From a virus (Duplodnaviria; Heunggongvirae; Uroviricota; Caudoviricetes), in the IMG/VR virus record IMGVR_UViG_2687453522_000001: 64,000 nt of DNA. One strand, given 5' to 3'. A program made the translations under genes and the position numbers. Shown piece by piece: positions 6-8,248 of the stretch (position 1 is the first letter of the stretch; the number at the start of each line of letters is the position of its first letter). A model generated the notes under the pieces. It saw only the letters and a list, made by a program, of their open reading frames with translations. It was not told the origin of the DNA and did not search any database.

Positions 6-365
6 TCATAGCACCACGTCCTGTGTGATAGTTATATCCCTGATACGAATGGATATTTTCAACTTATCAAAAGCATCTCCCTCGGCTACTGACAAGCCAG
101 AAATCGGTATGTCAGGTAAATCTACCGTCAGTTTTTGCAACAGCATTGCCTCAACCGCAATTTGAACATGCGACAAGTTGGTCGGTTCGTGTTTAAACTG
201 CGGTAAAACATTGCCCCATGACGGATCTCCGTATACCTCACCCTGATAAGTGTTTAGCCACTCATATAAACGAGCGCCCCAGGCCTCCTCCTGGGACTCA
301 TACGTTTTTACGCCGGATAACTCCAGCGTCAGTAAAGGATCAATTTCATTATTGTTGGCCATCAA
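6..365 (-). CDS. Phage tail/baseplate-associated morphogenesis protein (hypothetical)
   Basis: 119-aa minus-strand ORF immediately downstream of sit with a 4-nt start/stop overlap; its TGA stop at 6-8 overlaps the ATG of a further minus-strand gene running off the window start; no domain recognised. Confidence 0.45.
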   Translation of the reverse strand: MMANNNEIDPLLTLELSGVKTYESQEEAWGARLYEWLNTYQGEVYGDPSWGNVLPQFKHEPTNLSHVQIAVEAMLLQKLTVDLPDIPISGLSVAEGDAFDKLKISIRIRDITITQDVVL

Positions 366-3300
366 TCAACTCTCGCGTAGTCATTCATCAACGGATCATC
401 AATTGACAGTGGCACCGTGCGCATAACGCCCGGTTGAGGCGTGCTGACCTTTACGACAGTTCCCTGGCCTTTCGCCGAGTCTTTAGTGTGCTCTTCAATC
501 CTGGCAAGCAATGAGGTCATCTGCGCAAACAGCCGCTTCGTTTCACCATCAAGTGAAACGGTATTATCAGCCAACTGCATTGTCGGCTTGGCACCGGAGC
601 CGCCAAGGTCACTAATAACCTGTCCGTCTATCTGCATACGACCGGTTGGTTGCTGCAAATCGTTGGCGGCAGTCGTCACCTGGGACGTGGAGGCTGGTTC
701 AGGCGCATTATTTTTCCGCATCCCCGGCGAGTTGCGGAGTTTATCAAATAGTCCATCAATCCCCATTTGTGCGCCGAGTTGGTCAAAGTAACTTGAGTTG
801 CTGGCCACCGGACGCGCCTCTTCAACTGGCATCGGAGTATCAACATACACATTGCCAGCTGCTGTTGCGGTCCCCTTCCCTCGTGCACGTTCTTCGAGCG
901 TTCCCTGAACGACTTCCCGACGCATACCCCGGCCATTCATGAATTTGTTGACCAGATCGTTAACGCCAACAGCATTGCCAATTTTGTCTACCAGACCGCC
1001 TTTCTCAAACGGGCTATCACCAGGGGTAAACGCCAGGCCAGTAGACTGATCGATAACAGCGTTATCAGGCAGTGGTCCCCTCACTCCATATTGCGCCCCA
1101 CCCTGTGCTCCTGCTCCAGGTGTATAGATTTCACCACCTAAATAGCGAGCACGATGAGTATTGACCTTGATCGCGTACTCACGGTTTTCTTTCGATAAGT
1201 CACCTGTGCCTTTTTTCCACTTATTGATAGTGCCAAACCCAGCATTATATGCAGTGATGGCCTCGTTTAAGTCTCCATTGGCTTGCTTCAGATATTTGCT
1301 CATGAGAAGAGCCGCAGCTTCTGCCGATTTCACAGGATCAAACGATTCACCTTCAGCTAAGCCAGTCTCTTCACGAGCAATCCCCGTGAACTGAAACATC
1401 CCCAGAGCACCGGTTTGGGATTTTGCATACGGATTACCACCAGATTCAGTTGCAGCAATCGCGTAAAGAGTGCCTTCTGGAAGACCGTATTTATTCTCTA
1501 GTTCAGCAAAATACGGAGCCAACTTATCGAGATTTGCCTTACCTTCAGCTCCAAGACTTCCGACTTTTACATCCAAGTTGCCATTATTGTAGGTATCCGC
1601 AGCTTTCTGAATATCATTCCTGGTTCCAGTAGTATTACGCGACGATGATGACGAGCTATTTTGACCAATAGCTTTATCAATTTTCTGCAACGCGCTATTG
1701 CCCGTTTCTACAGCATTTGCATTGATTATCTGATTGGCAGTTTCTTTAACTGTTTTATTGCTATCTTTCGCCGTATCTAGGGATGCATTTACAACACGAG
1801 TGACAATATTAGCCTTTTTAGAGGTATATTCAGTCTTAGGAGCATTGTCCTCCTGACGTTCTTTAGCAGGTGTTTTTAATTCAGGTGTAACCTCTTTCGC
1901 ATCCGCTTTATTGACTAGCTTTGATGCAACCCAGGCCACTGGGGTGCTCTGAACAGCGGCATCTGCAACCTCACCTGAAAGCTCTTTTGCGGCACTCCAT
2001 AGATTACTGCCAGCTTCTTTAATGTATTTCCCTGGGTTCTTAATGAAATCAATTGCACTATCAATTGCATCACTGAAAACCTTTTTCAGGTTATCGACAG
2101 TAAAGAAGTCTTTGATGGCGTCTAATTTTTCGTTCAGACTCTTGGTTGTGTCACTGAACCAGGCTGAAATAGCATCGCCAATCTTGGCTGTGTAATCGTT
2201 GAATGTTGTGGATATGGTGTCACCAAGGTTAGAAATATATGTTTCTAAATTGGTAATCCCACTATCAATGGCCTGGGCAATACTTTCCGTCGAAAATGAT
2301 TGCAACATATTGCCGATATCCTCAAATCCAAGTGATTTGAGAACGCCACCAATGGCATTGCTAATACCAGATACCAGTCCTCCCATATCGAGAACGTTAG
2401 CCAGTGTATAAGCCGCTTTTTGCTGAAAAGATGGATCTTCCCCATCCTTAAGCCCAAAGGTCCGACGTTGTGCTTCTGTATCATTCCAACCGGTTACCGC
2501 ATCATAGATACCTCCAGCCACCGTGCCGACTAGCGGAATTGCGCGTAAAGCCCCCTTTGCAAAAGCCTTAACACCTAGTTTCTCCAATCCCTTAGTTGCA
2601 AGTTTTCCGGCACCGCGAGTAGCCAATTCGCCAGCTTCTTTGGCAGCAGCTTTTTTCCCACCAAAGCCCAATAAGCTTGCAACTTTTTTTATACCTAAAG
2701 CGCCTAGTGCCATCGAGCCAACTTTCTTTAGTGCCCCACGGCCAAAAATAAGGGAAGCAATACCACCGGCCCCCTTCCCTAACAGGCTAAATAATTTGGA
2801 CAGCAAGCCGCCCTTCTTTTTCCCGGTGTTTTTGGCTATCTGATCAAGGGCGCTGAGAATCTTGTCATTGCCCTCTTTAATTTCGCTGGTCTGATCCTGA
2901 AGTTCCTGAACCGTCCGTTTTTGGGTGTTAACCTGAACGACATCGGCACTATTTTGCGATTTACGCCTAAAAAAACCTTTTCTACGGCTGTTATCGTCAT
3001 TGCCACGAATCACATCGGCAATAGACTTTCTGGCGCCATTAAGCGATCCACCAACTTCTTTTGATATCCCGCCAAGCTCCTTCCCTGCTGCCCACAATGG
3101 ACCAGCAACGGCATAACCTAACGCATCGACGGCACGAGTCTCTGAAGGGTTACCTATGCCTTCAGCTACTTTTGACAGTTTTTTTAATAAACCTGATTCA
3201 GCATTTAGACGCTCATCATCCTCTTTGCGCCTGGCCTTTTCAGCACGTTCAGCACGGGCATCTTCCGCTGCGGCCTTACTCCCTGACTTTCCAATAAAAC

Positions 3301-4057
3301 GACCACGCGCATCGCGTTGGTTTTGGCTTTTTTGCGCACCGCCTTTTTGATCGAACATTTCGCGAGCGTGTTCGGCTGCTTCGGTCCGTTGTGCCTTTAT
3401 ATCCTCTGATATAGCCTTCCTGCGTCTTTTTTTACCCTTTGGTGTAGTTGATTTGGCCTGCTGTTCCTGTTGAGCAATGCCCTCCTGAACTACACGAGAA
3501 ACGTCCCCTAAATTAAGCCGTTTCATTGCGTCAACAATAGGGTCTACTGATGGCGCATTGGCCACAAAGTCTGGCCGGGAATTTTCGATTGTTCGATTTA
3601 ATGCCGACACACTGCGAGATACTGGGTCAACCGTTGCAACGCGTTCCCCTTTCAAATCACGAGCGAGTTTGACCGTTTCTAACCGCTGTGCTTTAACATC
3701 CTCTGTTATTGCCTCTCTTCGTCTATTTGGGGGATTGTGCGCTGTTGGTGCAGCCTGCTGTTCACGGTTAGTGACTTTGTCCTCCCGTATACGAGAAGCG
3801 TCCCCTAAATTAAGCCGTTTCATTGCGTCAACAATAGAGTCCACTGATGGCACATTGGTCACAAAGTCAGGACGTGAATTTTCGATTGTGCGATTTAATG
3901 CCGACACACTGCGAGAGACAGGATCAACAGTTGCAACTCGTTCCCCTTTCAAATCTTCAACAGCTTCCCGAATACCTGCAAGCTCTTCCAGCTCTTTCGC
4001 GCTGGCGGTTTCAACTGTCCTTATAACATCGTCAATATTGGCGTTTTTTCTTTCCAT
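362..4057 (-). CDS. sit: Sit-like structural injection transglycosylase / tape-measure-like protein
   Basis: 1231-aa ORF; soluble lytic transglycosylase motifs in the translation (ATESGGNPYA, GALGMFQF, AYNAGFG); long Gly/Ala/Lys-rich low-complexity region; position and size match P1 sit. Confidence 0.85.
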   Translation of the reverse strand: MERKNANIDDVIRTVETASAKELEELAGIREAVEDLKGERVATVDPVSRSVSALNRTIENSRPDFVTNVPSVDSIVDAMKRLNLGDASRIREDKVTNREQQAAPTAHNPPNRRREAITEDVKAQRLETVKLARDLKGERVATVDPVSRSVSALNRTIENSRPDFVANAPSVDPIVDAMKRLNLGDVSRVVQEGIAQQEQQAKSTTPKGKKRRRKAISEDIKAQRTEAAEHAREMFDQKGGAQKSQNQRDARGRFIGKSGSKAAAEDARAERAEKARRKEDDERLNAESGLLKKLSKVAEGIGNPSETRAVDALGYAVAGPLWAAGKELGGISKEVGGSLNGARKSIADVIRGNDDNSRRKGFFRRKSQNSADVVQVNTQKRTVQELQDQTSEIKEGNDKILSALDQIAKNTGKKKGGLLSKLFSLLGKGAGGIASLIFGRGALKKVGSMALGALGIKKVASLLGFGGKKAAAKEAGELATRGAGKLATKGLEKLGVKAFAKGALRAIPLVGTVAGGIYDAVTGWNDTEAQRRTFGLKDGEDPSFQQKAAYTLANVLDMGGLVSGISNAIGGVLKSLGFEDIGNMLQSFSTESIAQAIDSGITNLETYISNLGDTISTTFNDYTAKIGDAISAWFSDTTKSLNEKLDAIKDFFTVDNLKKVFSDAIDSAIDFIKNPGKYIKEAGSNLWSAAKELSGEVADAAVQSTPVAWVASKLVNKADAKEVTPELKTPAKERQEDNAPKTEYTSKKANIVTRVVNASLDTAKDSNKTVKETANQIINANAVETGNSALQKIDKAIGQNSSSSSSRNTTGTRNDIQKAADTYNNGNLDVKVGSLGAEGKANLDKLAPYFAELENKYGLPEGTLYAIAATESGGNPYAKSQTGALGMFQFTGIAREETGLAEGESFDPVKSAEAAALLMSKYLKQANGDLNEAITAYNAGFGTINKWKKGTGDLSKENREYAIKVNTHRARYLGGEIYTPGAGAQGGAQYGVRGPLPDNAVIDQSTGLAFTPGDSPFEKGGLVDKIGNAVGVNDLVNKFMNGRGMRREVVQGTLEERARGKGTATAAGNVYVDTPMPVEEARPVASNSSYFDQLGAQMGIDGLFDKLRNSPGMRKNNAPEPASTSQVTTAANDLQQPTGRMQIDGQVISDLGGSGAKPTMQLADNTVSLDGETKRLFAQMTSLLARIEEHTKDSAKGQGTVVKVSTPQPGVMRTVPLSIDDPLMNDYARVD
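3370..4000. repeat. In-frame tandem duplication (about 300-bp unit, 2 copies plus partial third) inside sit
   Basis: Near-identical DNA blocks starting near 3501 and 3799 (cgtcccctaaattaagccgtttcattgcgtcaacaatag...); protein segment DLKGERVATVDPVSRSVSALNRTIENSRPDFV... occurs twice about 100 aa apart. Confidence 0.8.
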
Positions 4058-4138
4058 GATCTTATCGCCTACCGTTTCGGTTTAAGTTTTTCTTCCAGTT
4101 TCTCCAACAGGAAAAACGCATAGGATTCAGTAAGCCTT

Positions 4139-5020
4139 TCAGCGTCCTGAATCGGTATACCCCCATACAAAACCAGGTTGGACACTAAGGTCTGATAGCT
4201 TTTCAATCCCCACCTGTGGAATGAAGTCGGTAGCCCGAAAGGGCACCCACAGACGGGTATACGCACCCTCTGTGGACTCCTTTGTATCCTGGTTTGGGCA
4301 TTTGTGCGGCGGGAGACGAAGACGCATTTCGCCTTTATCGATGTAGCACGGTAAACCATGTTCGAGCTTTTCATGAGCCAGCCGGATGTGTGCCGCCAGC
4401 TTCATAAATTCAGTATCAATGGCCATCCGTTTGATCGTTTCATAACGACGCTCAGCCTGCTCTTCACGAGTACCGCTAACATCGTTATAAAGTTCACACT
4501 GATAAGCGAATTCCCAAAAACGCAAATCAACGATCGCTTCTTTGAATTCCGCGTCGTCTTCAGGTGGCAATGCTGCTCGGCGCATCTCCAGCATTTCCAT
4601 TGCCCAACCATCAAGCGGCACGATACGCCATTGATAAGGCACGCCCTCTACAGACACCTCAATATCGTCAATGAACGGTTCCACTTCCAGGACCTGGATA
4701 TCTTCAGCCAGAGCATTCATATCGCAATCGTAATAATGCTCTTTACCGCAATGTTTACAGGTGTAGGTAAATGTCTCGATCGGTGTTTCGCGGGAGCCAG
4801 TAAATATCCACCATAACGCGGTAATCCGGTCCTGTGCCGTCCATTTCAGTGGATCATGTTTCGCAGCTTCAGCCAGCAAGGCTTTTAAATACGCTGTTGT
4901 CTGCTGTTCTTGTTCCTCCGGTGTTATCGAGTTGAAACGCATCGCATCAGCAATATTTGGCTGACGGAACTGGATTAATTCAGTTGGCCGCGATGGTAGC
5001 GGGAAAAGGGGTAAAAGCAT
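4139..5020 (-). CDS. Phage morphogenesis protein (hypothetical)
   Basis: 293-aa minus-strand ORF directly upstream of sit in the same operon orientation; several Cys/His pairs (CKHCGKEHYYDC); no confident domain. Confidence 0.5.
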   Translation of the reverse strand: MLLPLFPLPSRPTELIQFRQPNIADAMRFNSITPEEQEQQTTAYLKALLAEAAKHDPLKWTAQDRITALWWIFTGSRETPIETFTYTCKHCGKEHYYDCDMNALAEDIQVLEVEPFIDDIEVSVEGVPYQWRIVPLDGWAMEMLEMRRAALPPEDDAEFKEAIVDLRFWEFAYQCELYNDVSGTREEQAERRYETIKRMAIDTEFMKLAAHIRLAHEKLEHGLPCYIDKGEMRLRLPPHKCPNQDTKESTEGAYTRLWVPFRATDFIPQVGIEKLSDLSVQPGFVWGYTDSGR

Positions 5021-6453: not shown

Positions 6454-7347
6454 ATGCATTCTTTACAGAAATACATAAAACATAAATATACTCACTTAAC
6501 TTTTTTTCTCTCATTACTTTTCTTCATGATATTTGAATCTCGAGAAGATATTATCAAGAAAACATTATCTTTTTCTCTCGATGAAGTTTTACCATTCTTA
6601 ATGTTTGCGTTCTTCTCCGCCTTTATCAGCATAACGATAAAGGAAAAGATAGCAAAAAAATACCCAGAAACAAACGATGGGATTACCATTATAGCTTTAA
6701 TCTTTGGTGTAACGCTATATAGTGTATTTATATTATATTATTTATATGGTGATGTATACCAATCCACAATTGCTTTACTTATAAGTTCTGTGCTACTTGG
6801 TTCTGGGTGGTGGGTTCAGGCTACTGTGAGTAAAGTAGCCGCAAGAAAATCACACACCTTAAATACACTAATGAATCAAAGAAACAGTGAATTATTTCAC
6901 AAAAAAGTCTCATCGGTAGCGAATACGTTCGGGCTTAGAAAAACCATAAATGAAATTATTGCCAAACAAAGACTTATCCCAAATGATAAAGATTTAAAAA
7001 ATAAAAAGGTCCATGATAAATACATATCAGCAGGTAATGATATGTTCTTCGTTCTTAATTATTATGAGTTTATCTGTTCAGGAATAATAAATGGAGACTT
7101 TGATGAAGATTCAATGAGAGAATGTCTTGGACAAATTGTTCCAGGTCTCGAAGTTAGAGCATTTCATTTTATAAGAATTGCAAGAGAAATTTCAGGGAGT
7201 AGCTGCTTCTGTAATTTTGTTGCTGTTTCAGATAAATGGTCTACTAATGGAGGCTCTCTTATTCTCAGACACGAGAAAGGAGAACCTGTGATCAATAACC
7301 TGACCCATTGCTTTGAAGAAACAGCCTGTTATAACACAACATCTTAA
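6454..7347 (+). CDS. Membrane protein with about four N-terminal TM helices and a C-terminal soluble domain (function unknown)
   Basis: 297-aa ORF in an AT-rich segment; hydrophobic stretches LTFFLSLLFFMIF, VLPFLMFAFFSAFISI, ITIIALIFGVTLYSVFILYYLY, STIALLISSVLLGSGWWV; AGGA about 8 nt upstream of the ATG. Confidence 0.6.
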   Translation: MHSLQKYIKHKYTHLTFFLSLLFFMIFESREDIIKKTLSFSLDEVLPFLMFAFFSAFISITIKEKIAKKYPETNDGITIIALIFGVTLYSVFILYYLYGDVYQSTIALLISSVLLGSGWWVQATVSKVAARKSHTLNTLMNQRNSELFHKKVSSVANTFGLRKTINEIIAKQRLIPNDKDLKNKKVHDKYISAGNDMFFVLNYYEFICSGIINGDFDEDSMRECLGQIVPGLEVRAFHFIRIAREISGSSCFCNFVAVSDKWSTNGGSLILRHEKGEPVINNLTHCFEETACYNTTS

Positions 7348-7398
7348 TATTTTGTAACCCATAATCGCTTTATGGGTTACGTTAAATTTGCAATAAAA

Positions 7399-7875
7399 TT
7401 AATCGCCGCGCTTTAAGCATCCATCGTTTTTAGCTTGTTGATATAATTTACTTAGCCCAGAAAGAGGAAATGTGGCAATTTTTTCATTATCAACATAAGC
7501 ATCGATCGCATTAGCATTTGAATCTGCTGCATCTTGCCAAAAGGCATACCACCAAGAATCTCCAACCATTGACCCAAGATTGCTAAAAGGGTATTGCTCA
7601 CCATCTAATGTTAATACTATTTTACTCTTGTCAGCATTATACTCTTTTTTATTATTCGACGACCTTAGCAACAGGCCTAAACTACCGGCACTATCTGGTG
7701 ATCCATACATGAAACCCATATCACATAAAAAACTTATCTTATCACCATTTTGATTATGGATTGTATATTCTCTCCCCCCTCTATCTTCAATTACATTCCA
7801 TTGTAGAGGATCAATTTTTGCAAATACTCCTGCTGAAATTAACGATACAAATAATAAAAACCATCTCATATTCAT
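7399..7875 (-). CDS. Secreted/periplasmic protein with N-terminal signal peptide
   Basis: 158-aa ORF; N-terminus MNMRWFLLFVSLISAGVFA is a classical signal peptide; AT-rich; downstream of the small membrane protein gene on the same strand. Confidence 0.6.
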   Translation of the reverse strand: MNMRWFLLFVSLISAGVFAKIDPLQWNVIEDRGGREYTIHNQNGDKISFLCDMGFMYGSPDSAGSLGLLLRSSNNKKEYNADKSKIVLTLDGEQYPFSNLGSMVGDSWWYAFWQDAADSNANAIDAYVDNEKIATFPLSGLSKLYQQAKNDGCLKRGD

Positions 7876-7897
7876 TTTTTTCGCTTCTTATCTGTAA

Positions 7898-8248
7898 TTA
7901 TTCTGCAATATCATTTGCCCATTGCACGGCAGCAAAATGAGTGCCCAAGCCACTCAGGAAAGCAATTATTCCCAAAACAATACTAGCTGCTGTTGATTCA
8001 AACAAAGCACCAATGCTATAGCCAATAGCTCCCCATACTAAGCTAAAGACAATCATCAATGGTATTGCCAGAAATTTTATTCTTAAACTAAAAATCAGTC
8101 CAAGAAATGAACCGCCAAAGGCCCACCATGATTTAGACATTAAACCTATCAGTATTGACAGAATTCCTATTTCAATAAAGAGAATATTAGATTGCTCTTC
8201 ATTGAATTTCGCATTTGTTACACCTTTACGAACATGTTCAGATGACAT
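7898..8248 (-). CDS. Small multi-pass inner-membrane protein
   Basis: 116-aa ORF with three to four hydrophobic helices (ILFIEIGILSILIGL, FLGLIFSL, AIPLMIVFSLVWGAIGYSIGALF, IVLGIIAFLSGL); first gene of a two-gene minus-strand unit. Confidence 0.55.
   Translation of the reverse strand: MSSEHVRKGVTNAKFNEEQSNILFIEIGILSILIGLMSKSWWAFGGSFLGLIFSLRIKFLAIPLMIVFSLVWGAIGYSIGALFESTAASIVLGIIAFLSGLGTHFAAVQWANDIAE

Follow-up and report, generated by a model that had tools for sequence, protein, structure and literature searches.

A variable-number array of 99-residue units near the N-terminus of the tape-measure protein Sit in P1-like phages

The sit gene and its tandem array

The virus sequence IMGVR_UViG_2687453522_000001 (Caudoviricetes), analysed here as a stretch of 64,000 nucleotides (nt) and hereafter referred to as the window, carries close to its start an intact open reading frame (ORF) for Sit, the tail tape-measure protein and injection transglycosylase of P1-like phages. 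Directly behind a short N-terminal cap, the predicted protein contains two tandem units of 99 residues each, while the Sit protein of phage P1 contains a single one (Table 1). A preliminary description of the window, made from its letters alone, had named the gene as sit with a product of 1231 amino acids (aa), an identification which the ORF, homology, synteny and the SLT domain all bear out. It had also noticed two tandem in-frame units of about 300 bp and 100 codons, which were recovered here as 2 x 297 nt (99 codons), and the peptide it quoted as duplicated (DLKGERVATVDPVSRSVSALNRTIENSRPDFV...IVDAMKRLNLGD) is present in both units. Its coordinates for the array, 3370-4000, were roughly right, the actual span being 3362-3955.

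Table 1. Coordinates of sit, its N-terminal repeat array and the flanking tail genes in the window
Feature	Coordinates	Strand	Remarks
sit (tail tape-measure / injection transglycosylase), 1231 aa	362..4057	minus	intact ORF
N-terminal cap, codons 1-34 (MERKNANIDDVIRTVETASAKELEELAGIREAVE)	3956..4057	minus	abuts the repeat array
unit 1, codons 35-133	3659..3955	minus	missing from P1, P7 and SJ46
unit 1 head	3955..3782	minus	
unit 1 tail, type 1 (SRIREDKVTNREQQAAPTAHNPPNRRREAITEDVKAQRLETVKLAR)	3781..3659	minus	
unit 2, codons 134-232	3362..3658	minus	counterpart of the single unit of P1
unit 2 head	3658..3485	minus	
unit 2 tail, type 2 (VVQEGIAQQEQQAKSTTPKGKKRRRKAISEDIKAQRTEAAEHAR)	3484..3362	minus	
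SLT lytic transglycosylase domain, aa 849-958	1184..1513	minus	Pfam PF01464; E = 2.6e-27
pmgA (baseplate wedge)	6..362	minus	start overlaps the sit stop; 100% identical to P1 PmgA
pmgB (proposed tape-measure chaperone)	4139..5020	minus	directly upstream of sit; 98.6% aa identity to P1 PmgB
tub (tube initiator), 203 aa	5035..5646	minus	position and length as in P1, phi456 and SJ46

A repeat search of sit identified one direct-repeat family, with two copies whose starts lie 297 nt, or exactly 99 codons, apart, such that the repeats are in frame. Tandem Repeats Finder missed the array, which was recovered only by the repeat search and by direct alignment. When aligned in register the two units are identical at 233/297 nt (78%) and 70/99 aa (71%), so that the earlier impression of nearly identical copies proved too strong, and a blastn comparison gives a similarity far beyond chance (Identity: 79%; 299 columns; E = 3e-73). 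This identity is unevenly distributed, reaching 89% in the first 174 nt, which encode a 58-codon head, and 63% in the last 123 nt, which encode a 41-codon tail. The head comprises 58 conserved, proline-containing residues (DLKGERVATV...AMKRLNLGD.SR), while the tail is a fast-evolving, charged linker of 41 residues. The start of a third unit had furthermore been suspected, but the 99 residues that follow unit 2 match the unit at only 2/99 positions in register, and the repeat search likewise yields two copies.

The cap that precedes the array is identical at the aa level in 88/90 alleles and is still recognisable in the distantly related Cronobacter phage JK004. Each unit contains five to six prolines and one Phe, while Trp and Tyr are absent. 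Tape-measure proteins of TP901-1, p2 and mycobacteriophages contain tandem repeats of 11 or 18 residues with Trp or Phe at fixed spacing (PMC5099701). The Sit array falls outside this class, given a unit of 99 residues with a single Phe and neither Trp nor Tyr. For aa 1-352, a single-sequence AlphaFold2 (AF2) model gives mainly helix, interrupted at the proline-rich parts, and is of low confidence (mean predicted local distance difference test score, pLDDT: 59).

Searches of Pfam and of PDB sequences with the N-terminal region of Sit gave no match, and the PHROGs which align to this region are Sit-type families of unknown function only. An exhaustive phmmer search with unit 2 against 1.84 billion representative proteins recovered P1-family Sit proteins and one other match (P0017), to an unrelated surface protein with repeats, which was rejected as spurious. 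Among the databases searched, the module is thus without an informative homologue outside P1-family Sit.

Identity of the gene

By every feature of sequence and gene order tested, the gene is a member of the P1-family (Punavirus) sit genes. In a megablast comparison with phage genomes, P1-family sit matched along the entire gene, with nt identities of 98.3-98.4% to phi456, which covers 100% of the gene, and vB_EcoM-673R5, and of 93-95% to P1, P7, SJ46 and RCS47, for which the query was partly uncovered. The protein is similar to P1-family Sit over its full length, as is its match to PHROG 2533. The C-proximal SLT domain is the sole Pfam domain in Sit, and the PDB sequence matches are MltC-type lytic transglycosylases. 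The gene order tub-pmgB-sit-pmgA is found in the window, while bplA would fall beyond its start. Public copies of these Sit sequences are annotated just as "transglycosylase SLT domain-containing protein". In P1, Sit has been identified as the tape-measure protein, with its N-terminal two-thirds being largely alpha-helical, and a role as tape-measure chaperone has been proposed for PmgB (PMC9024508). In the cryo-electron microscopy (cryo-EM) structure of P1, whose tail consists of 52 tube and 53 sheath rings, Sit lies in the lumen and is not resolved owing to its flexibility (PMC12810830).

Copy number of the unit among P1-like elements

Alignment of the proteins of P1 (YP_006507.1; 1140 aa), P7 (1130 aa) and SJ46 (1137 aa) showed that each contains a single unit, which aligns to unit 2 of the window. 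The preliminary description had given P1 Sit as about 1140 aa, correctly, and had proposed this alignment as a check; the reference P1 protein does not contain two copies. The excess of 91 aa over P1 Sit is accounted for by the extra unit (+99) and four other indels (+8, -3, -3 and -10 aa), which are mosaic relative to P1 and are held in common with SJ46 and P7. The window allele thus resembles P1 sit in its tub-pmgB-sit-pmgA context, its nt identity of ~93%, its cap and its SLT domain, while it differs in the additional 99-aa unit with a type-1 tail and in the four small indels.

Downstream of the array (~362-3360, minus strand) the gene is itself mosaic. The central hydrophobic region and the +8 aa insertion resemble those of SJ46, while the SLT region, which lacks the 10-aa loop TLTRSPNGKL of P1, and the C-terminus resemble those of P7. 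Where the P1-type loop is present, as it is in other two- and three-copy alleles, the proteins measure 1241 and 1340 aa.

The closest characterized relative is Sit of phage phi456 (WNL49372.1; 1231 aa; 98.3% nt identity), which has the same two-unit array and the same length and differs by point substitutions only. Since phi456 forms plaques and myovirus particles (PMC10967188), a two-copy Sit supports the production of infectious virions. The only distant homologue available, Sit of Cronobacter phage JK004 (1068 aa), contains one diverged unit and is likewise arranged as cap, head and proline-rich linker, and the core of the head (..AMK.LNLG) persists in it. In the records of two further relatives, vB_EcoM-673R5 (ON470615.2) and vB_EcoM-813R1 (ON470617.2), sit is broken by frameshifts into several short coding sequences, with 813R1 apparently containing three units. 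These frameshifts are probably sequencing errors and not signs of pseudogenes, such that the records understate the length of Sit.

The frequency of the two-unit arrangement was estimated with a 161-nt probe comprising the copy-1-specific tail and the junction between units 1 and 2, for which matches of at least 95% identity and at least 80% coverage were counted, and with a denominator probe located just downstream of the array and present in all sit alleles. Of the 5426 complete E. coli genomes, 197 contain a match to the junction probe, as do 136 PLSDB plasmids, while the denominator probe matches 477 plasmids and 469 genomes. At least two units are therefore present in ~42% (197/469) of the sit genes in complete E. 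coli genomes and in ~29% (136/477) of those in PLSDB. The suggestion that the extra copy may be lineage-specific thus holds insofar as the copy is absent from P1, P7 and SJ46, but it is not special to this element. The exact protein of the window is also found in NCBI (ATX00048.1 and others), on 146 contigs.

These counts bear directly on the alternative, raised in the preliminary description, that the duplication is an artefact of assembly or sequencing through which the repeat was mis-expanded in a single record. Tandem repeats carry this risk in general, and sit frameshift errors do occur in some related phage records. Here, however, the ORF is intact, the identical protein and the junction recur in the many records given above, and the units differ at 64/297 positions and can as such not represent a mis-assembled single copy. 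Together these observations refute the artefact, and the probability that we would still assign to it is negligible.

Alleles with three copies were traced through records with two probe matches, namely pEC2_5 and p211899A_LBHALD (WP_250663835) and pEC15-3, with a Sit of 1340 aa. Since the probe matches at most twice in any E. coli genome, the arrays seen there do not exceed three units. In a sample of 84 alleles, comprising 80 IMG/VR loci together with reference phages and plasmids, one unit is found in 62, two in 18 and three in 3, while one allele (L083) contains a single unit that is four residues shorter. The 13 Sit fragments, mostly partial, that a homologue search recovered for the two-unit peptide are uninformative on copy number, and an additional contig scan added three further loci, all one-copy or fragments.

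Two atypical records were also encountered. A 236-nt contig attributed to Acinetobacter idrijaensis (JQCU01000535.1) is 99% identical to the unit region of Sit and is most likely a contaminant, or a stray read, that came from a P1-like element of E. coli. A database protein from outside the window (P0015; 1009 aa) begins within the type-1 tail (MTEDVKAQRLETVKLAR) and continues through one full unit and ~100 Sit residues, before changing at KELGGI|TPAMMTLF to ~780 residues with no relation to Sit. This protein seems to derive from a rearrangement that joined the 5′ part of a two-copy sit to a different gene.

Recombination within the array

The two types of tail are strictly distributed by position. 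The type-1 tail (IREDKVTN...VKLAR) occurs in every non-last unit and in those alone, while the type-2 tail (VVQE...EHAR) occurs in every last unit; at the position of the basic patch KGKKRRRK of the type-2 tail, non-last units have NRRRE. Painting of the units at 63 sites that tell units 1 and 2 apart showed that, in the three-copy alleles, the middle unit corresponds to copy 2 in its 5′ part and to copy 1 in its 3′ part. Such a chimera is expected when unit 2 of one molecule undergoes unequal crossing-over with unit 1 of a second. The breakpoints lie at nt 96-113 of the unit in two of these alleles (L008 and L009) and at nt 113-165 in the third (L007), indicating that such crossing-over happened at least twice. 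The reciprocal contraction is represented by a one-copy allele (L011), which is unit-1-like to nt 38 and unit-2-like thereafter, with a unit 2 tail of the window type, while in another one-copy allele (L084) a unit 1 head is joined to an SJ46-type tail. Short unit-2-like tracts at the 5′ ends of several unit 1 heads are consistent with gene conversion.

The array thus behaves as a variable-number repeat within a coding region, with integer copy numbers of 1, 2 and 3 and with chimeric units where unequal crossing-over predicts them, and the allele comparisons show it to expand and contract by unequal homologous recombination between the heads. It is furthermore found on both central sit backgrounds, the P1-type (12 two-copy alleles) and the SJ46-type (6), and has therefore been shuffled by recombination. 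That JK004 has a single unit lends weak support to an ancestral state of one unit.

Predicted effect on tail length

Sit would be expected to span the lumen of the tail, with its C-terminus anchored in the baseplate, and the units would lie between the invariant N-terminal cap and the rest of the lumenal ruler. An extra unit would then increase the distance between the cap and the baseplate anchor, giving a longer tail without abolishing infectivity. With the array so placed, behind a conserved cap and ahead of the remainder of a tape-measure protein, added length is the most likely effect. Two estimates of its size were made, for which the rise per ring was assumed to be ~40 Å, as in contractile tails generally. 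In the first, 99 residues at 1.5 Å per residue give ~149 Å, or 3.7 rings, while in the second, scaling by the residues-to-rings ratio of P1 itself gives ~181 Å, or 4.5 rings. Each extra unit may hence add ~15-18 nm (4-5 tube rings), by which the 52 rings of P1 would become ~56-57 in two-copy phages.

The closest parallels are the tape-measure protein of TP901-1, gpH of lambda and gp29 of T4, in which in-frame internal duplications or deletions likewise occur in a lumenal ruler protein. The length variants of lambda gpH were reportedly obtained by Katsura in 1987, and those of T4 gp29 are said to have been described by Abuladze et al. in 1994. These cases are laboratory constructs or concern short aromatic repeats of 11 or 18 residues, whereas the Sit module comprises 99 residues without aromatic periodicity and occurs naturally in 1-3 copies in a contractile-tailed phage-plasmid. 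In TP901-1, duplication of an N-terminal region of the tape-measure protein resulted in a proportionally longer tail with no loss of titre (PMC5099701).

We are highly confident in the part of this account that describes what the array is and how it arises, which is shown from the sequences. The lengthening of the tail by each extra unit, which is argued by analogy, appears evenly balanced between being correct and not. The whole explanation, in which the window holds a two-unit allele of a variable-number 99-residue array in Sit with a longer tail as its consequence, is in our estimation slightly favoured.

Two groups of observations weigh against this account. The first concerns the history of the array. 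The type-1 tail is just 63% identical to type 2 at the nt level, yet it is near-invariant, with a mean pairwise difference in the population of 0.6%, as compared to 5.6% for the tails of one-copy alleles. A tblastn search of PLSDB separates the tails into classes, type 1 at no less than 95% identity and type 2 at under 60%, with nothing between, and no donor lineage or intermediate for the type-1 tail was found either there or in the contig scan. Rapid divergence following an ancient duplication could account for the type-1 tail, as could its import from a relative that has not been sampled. With regard to the direction of change, the heads of typical one-copy alleles are unit-1-like for approximately the first 65 nt and unit-2-like thereafter.

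The second group concerns the effect on the tail. A literature search gave no tail length for phi456 or 673R5, or for any two- or three-copy P1-like phage. With five to six prolines per unit and an AF2 pLDDT of 59, a rigid helix of 1.5 Å per residue is not to be assumed, and the 1140 aa of P1 Sit for ~52 rings misfit a simple rule of 1.5 Å per residue, making the mode by which Sit measures length uncertain. The module is furthermore located at the extreme N-terminus, which in some tape-measure proteins is used for end recognition or chaperone binding instead of for measuring length.

Published values for the P1 tail also diverge. A length of 120 nm was used to argue that ~750 helical Sit residues fit the tail (PMC9024508), while 52 tube and 53 sheath rings (PMC12810830) would correspond to ~210 nm if the rise is ~40 Å. 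Given these two values, the relation between residues and length for Sit is unsettled.

Selection on the units and alternative roles

Between copy 1 and copy 2, the heads differ by 0.30 synonymous substitutions per site (dS), with a ratio of nonsynonymous to synonymous substitutions (dN/dS) of 0.22, and the ratio falls to 0.06-0.10 when they are compared with one-copy alleles, while the tails show a dS of 0.9 and a dN of 0.41. These ratios show that both heads are kept by purifying selection at the protein level. This is unlike what would be expected of dispensable filler, and it speaks against the alternative that the extra unit is a flexible or disordered N-terminal extension which packs into the lumen or neck and is near-neutral, with no effect on tail length. 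The determinant of length would then be the remainder of Sit, or the unit closest to the protein body, and recombination would maintain the polymorphism. Such an extension would agree with the proline-rich heads and charged, low-complexity tails, with the low confidence of the AF2 model and its breaks at the head and tail segments, and with the flexibility that leaves Sit unresolved by cryo-EM (PMC12810830). One- and two-copy alleles are, moreover, both frequent on several backgrounds, as a near-neutral variant would be. Experimental duplications in tape-measure proteins, one of them N-terminal, have nevertheless altered tail length proportionally (PMC5099701), and we regard a neutral extension as rather unlikely.

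The conservation of the head could alternatively reflect binding, whereby each unit provides a docking site for a partner such as PmgB, the tail terminator gp24 or, through a basic patch, the DNA end, and its duplication alters assembly efficiency or DNA ejection instead of, or in addition to, length. Within the unit, conservation is highest in the head, whose core is retained in JK004 Sit, the type-2 tail carries the KGKKRRRK patch, and pmgB, the product of which is the proposed tape-measure chaperone (PMC9024508), is directly upstream. Any such partner is, however, hypothetical, the strong basic patch is lacking from the non-last units with their NRRRE motif, and no Pfam, PDB or out-of-family homologue points to binding. 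We regard an extra docking site as improbable.

Whether the extra units lengthen the tail or the head serves as a docking site, the natural alleles would allow the way in which Sit measures the P1 tail to be probed directly. Alleles with one, two and three units, all apparently functional, would provide a handle on the ruler model in a contractile-tailed phage, including its N-terminal region. P1 is furthermore a classic phage of transduction, and phage-plasmids like it commonly carry resistance genes in E. coli. We tentatively suggest, as a possibility that is itself rather doubtful, a natural tail-length polymorphism, with 1, 2 and 3 modules at ~58%, 40% and 2% in complete E. coli genomes, which unequal recombination would generate and reshuffle and which would be retained because tails of different length suit hosts whose envelopes differ in the thickness of O-antigen or capsule, or, as a variant, one in which the head acts as a repeated docking site for a tail-completion partner.

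In itself, the window allele is a genuine but frequent natural variant, and an example of ordinary length polymorphism in a tape-measure protein. Length variation of tape-measure proteins by in-frame internal duplication is already known, and this exact allele is widespread in public databases. No description of the Sit duplication, with its 99-residue module, its 1-3-copy polymorphism and its chimeric units, was found in the searchable literature, the phi456 paper included.

Other features of the window

Three tRNA genes, Asn-GTT, Thr-TGT and Met-CAT, are located on the plus strand at 30974-31127 and 34574-34649, and match the tRNA set of P1. An IncY phage-plasmid is among the close relatives of the window. 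Between the tail genes and the antirepressor region, at 6454-8248, the plus strand encodes a membrane-like ORF of 297 aa, for which the annotation of the related plasmid NZ_CP023961.1 gives DUF4760, while the minus strand also has two small ORFs of 158 and 116 aa. Antisense to sit and across both units, the plus strand contains a mechanically called ORF of 175 aa (3558-4085), which is internally repeated and which nothing suggests to be a gene.

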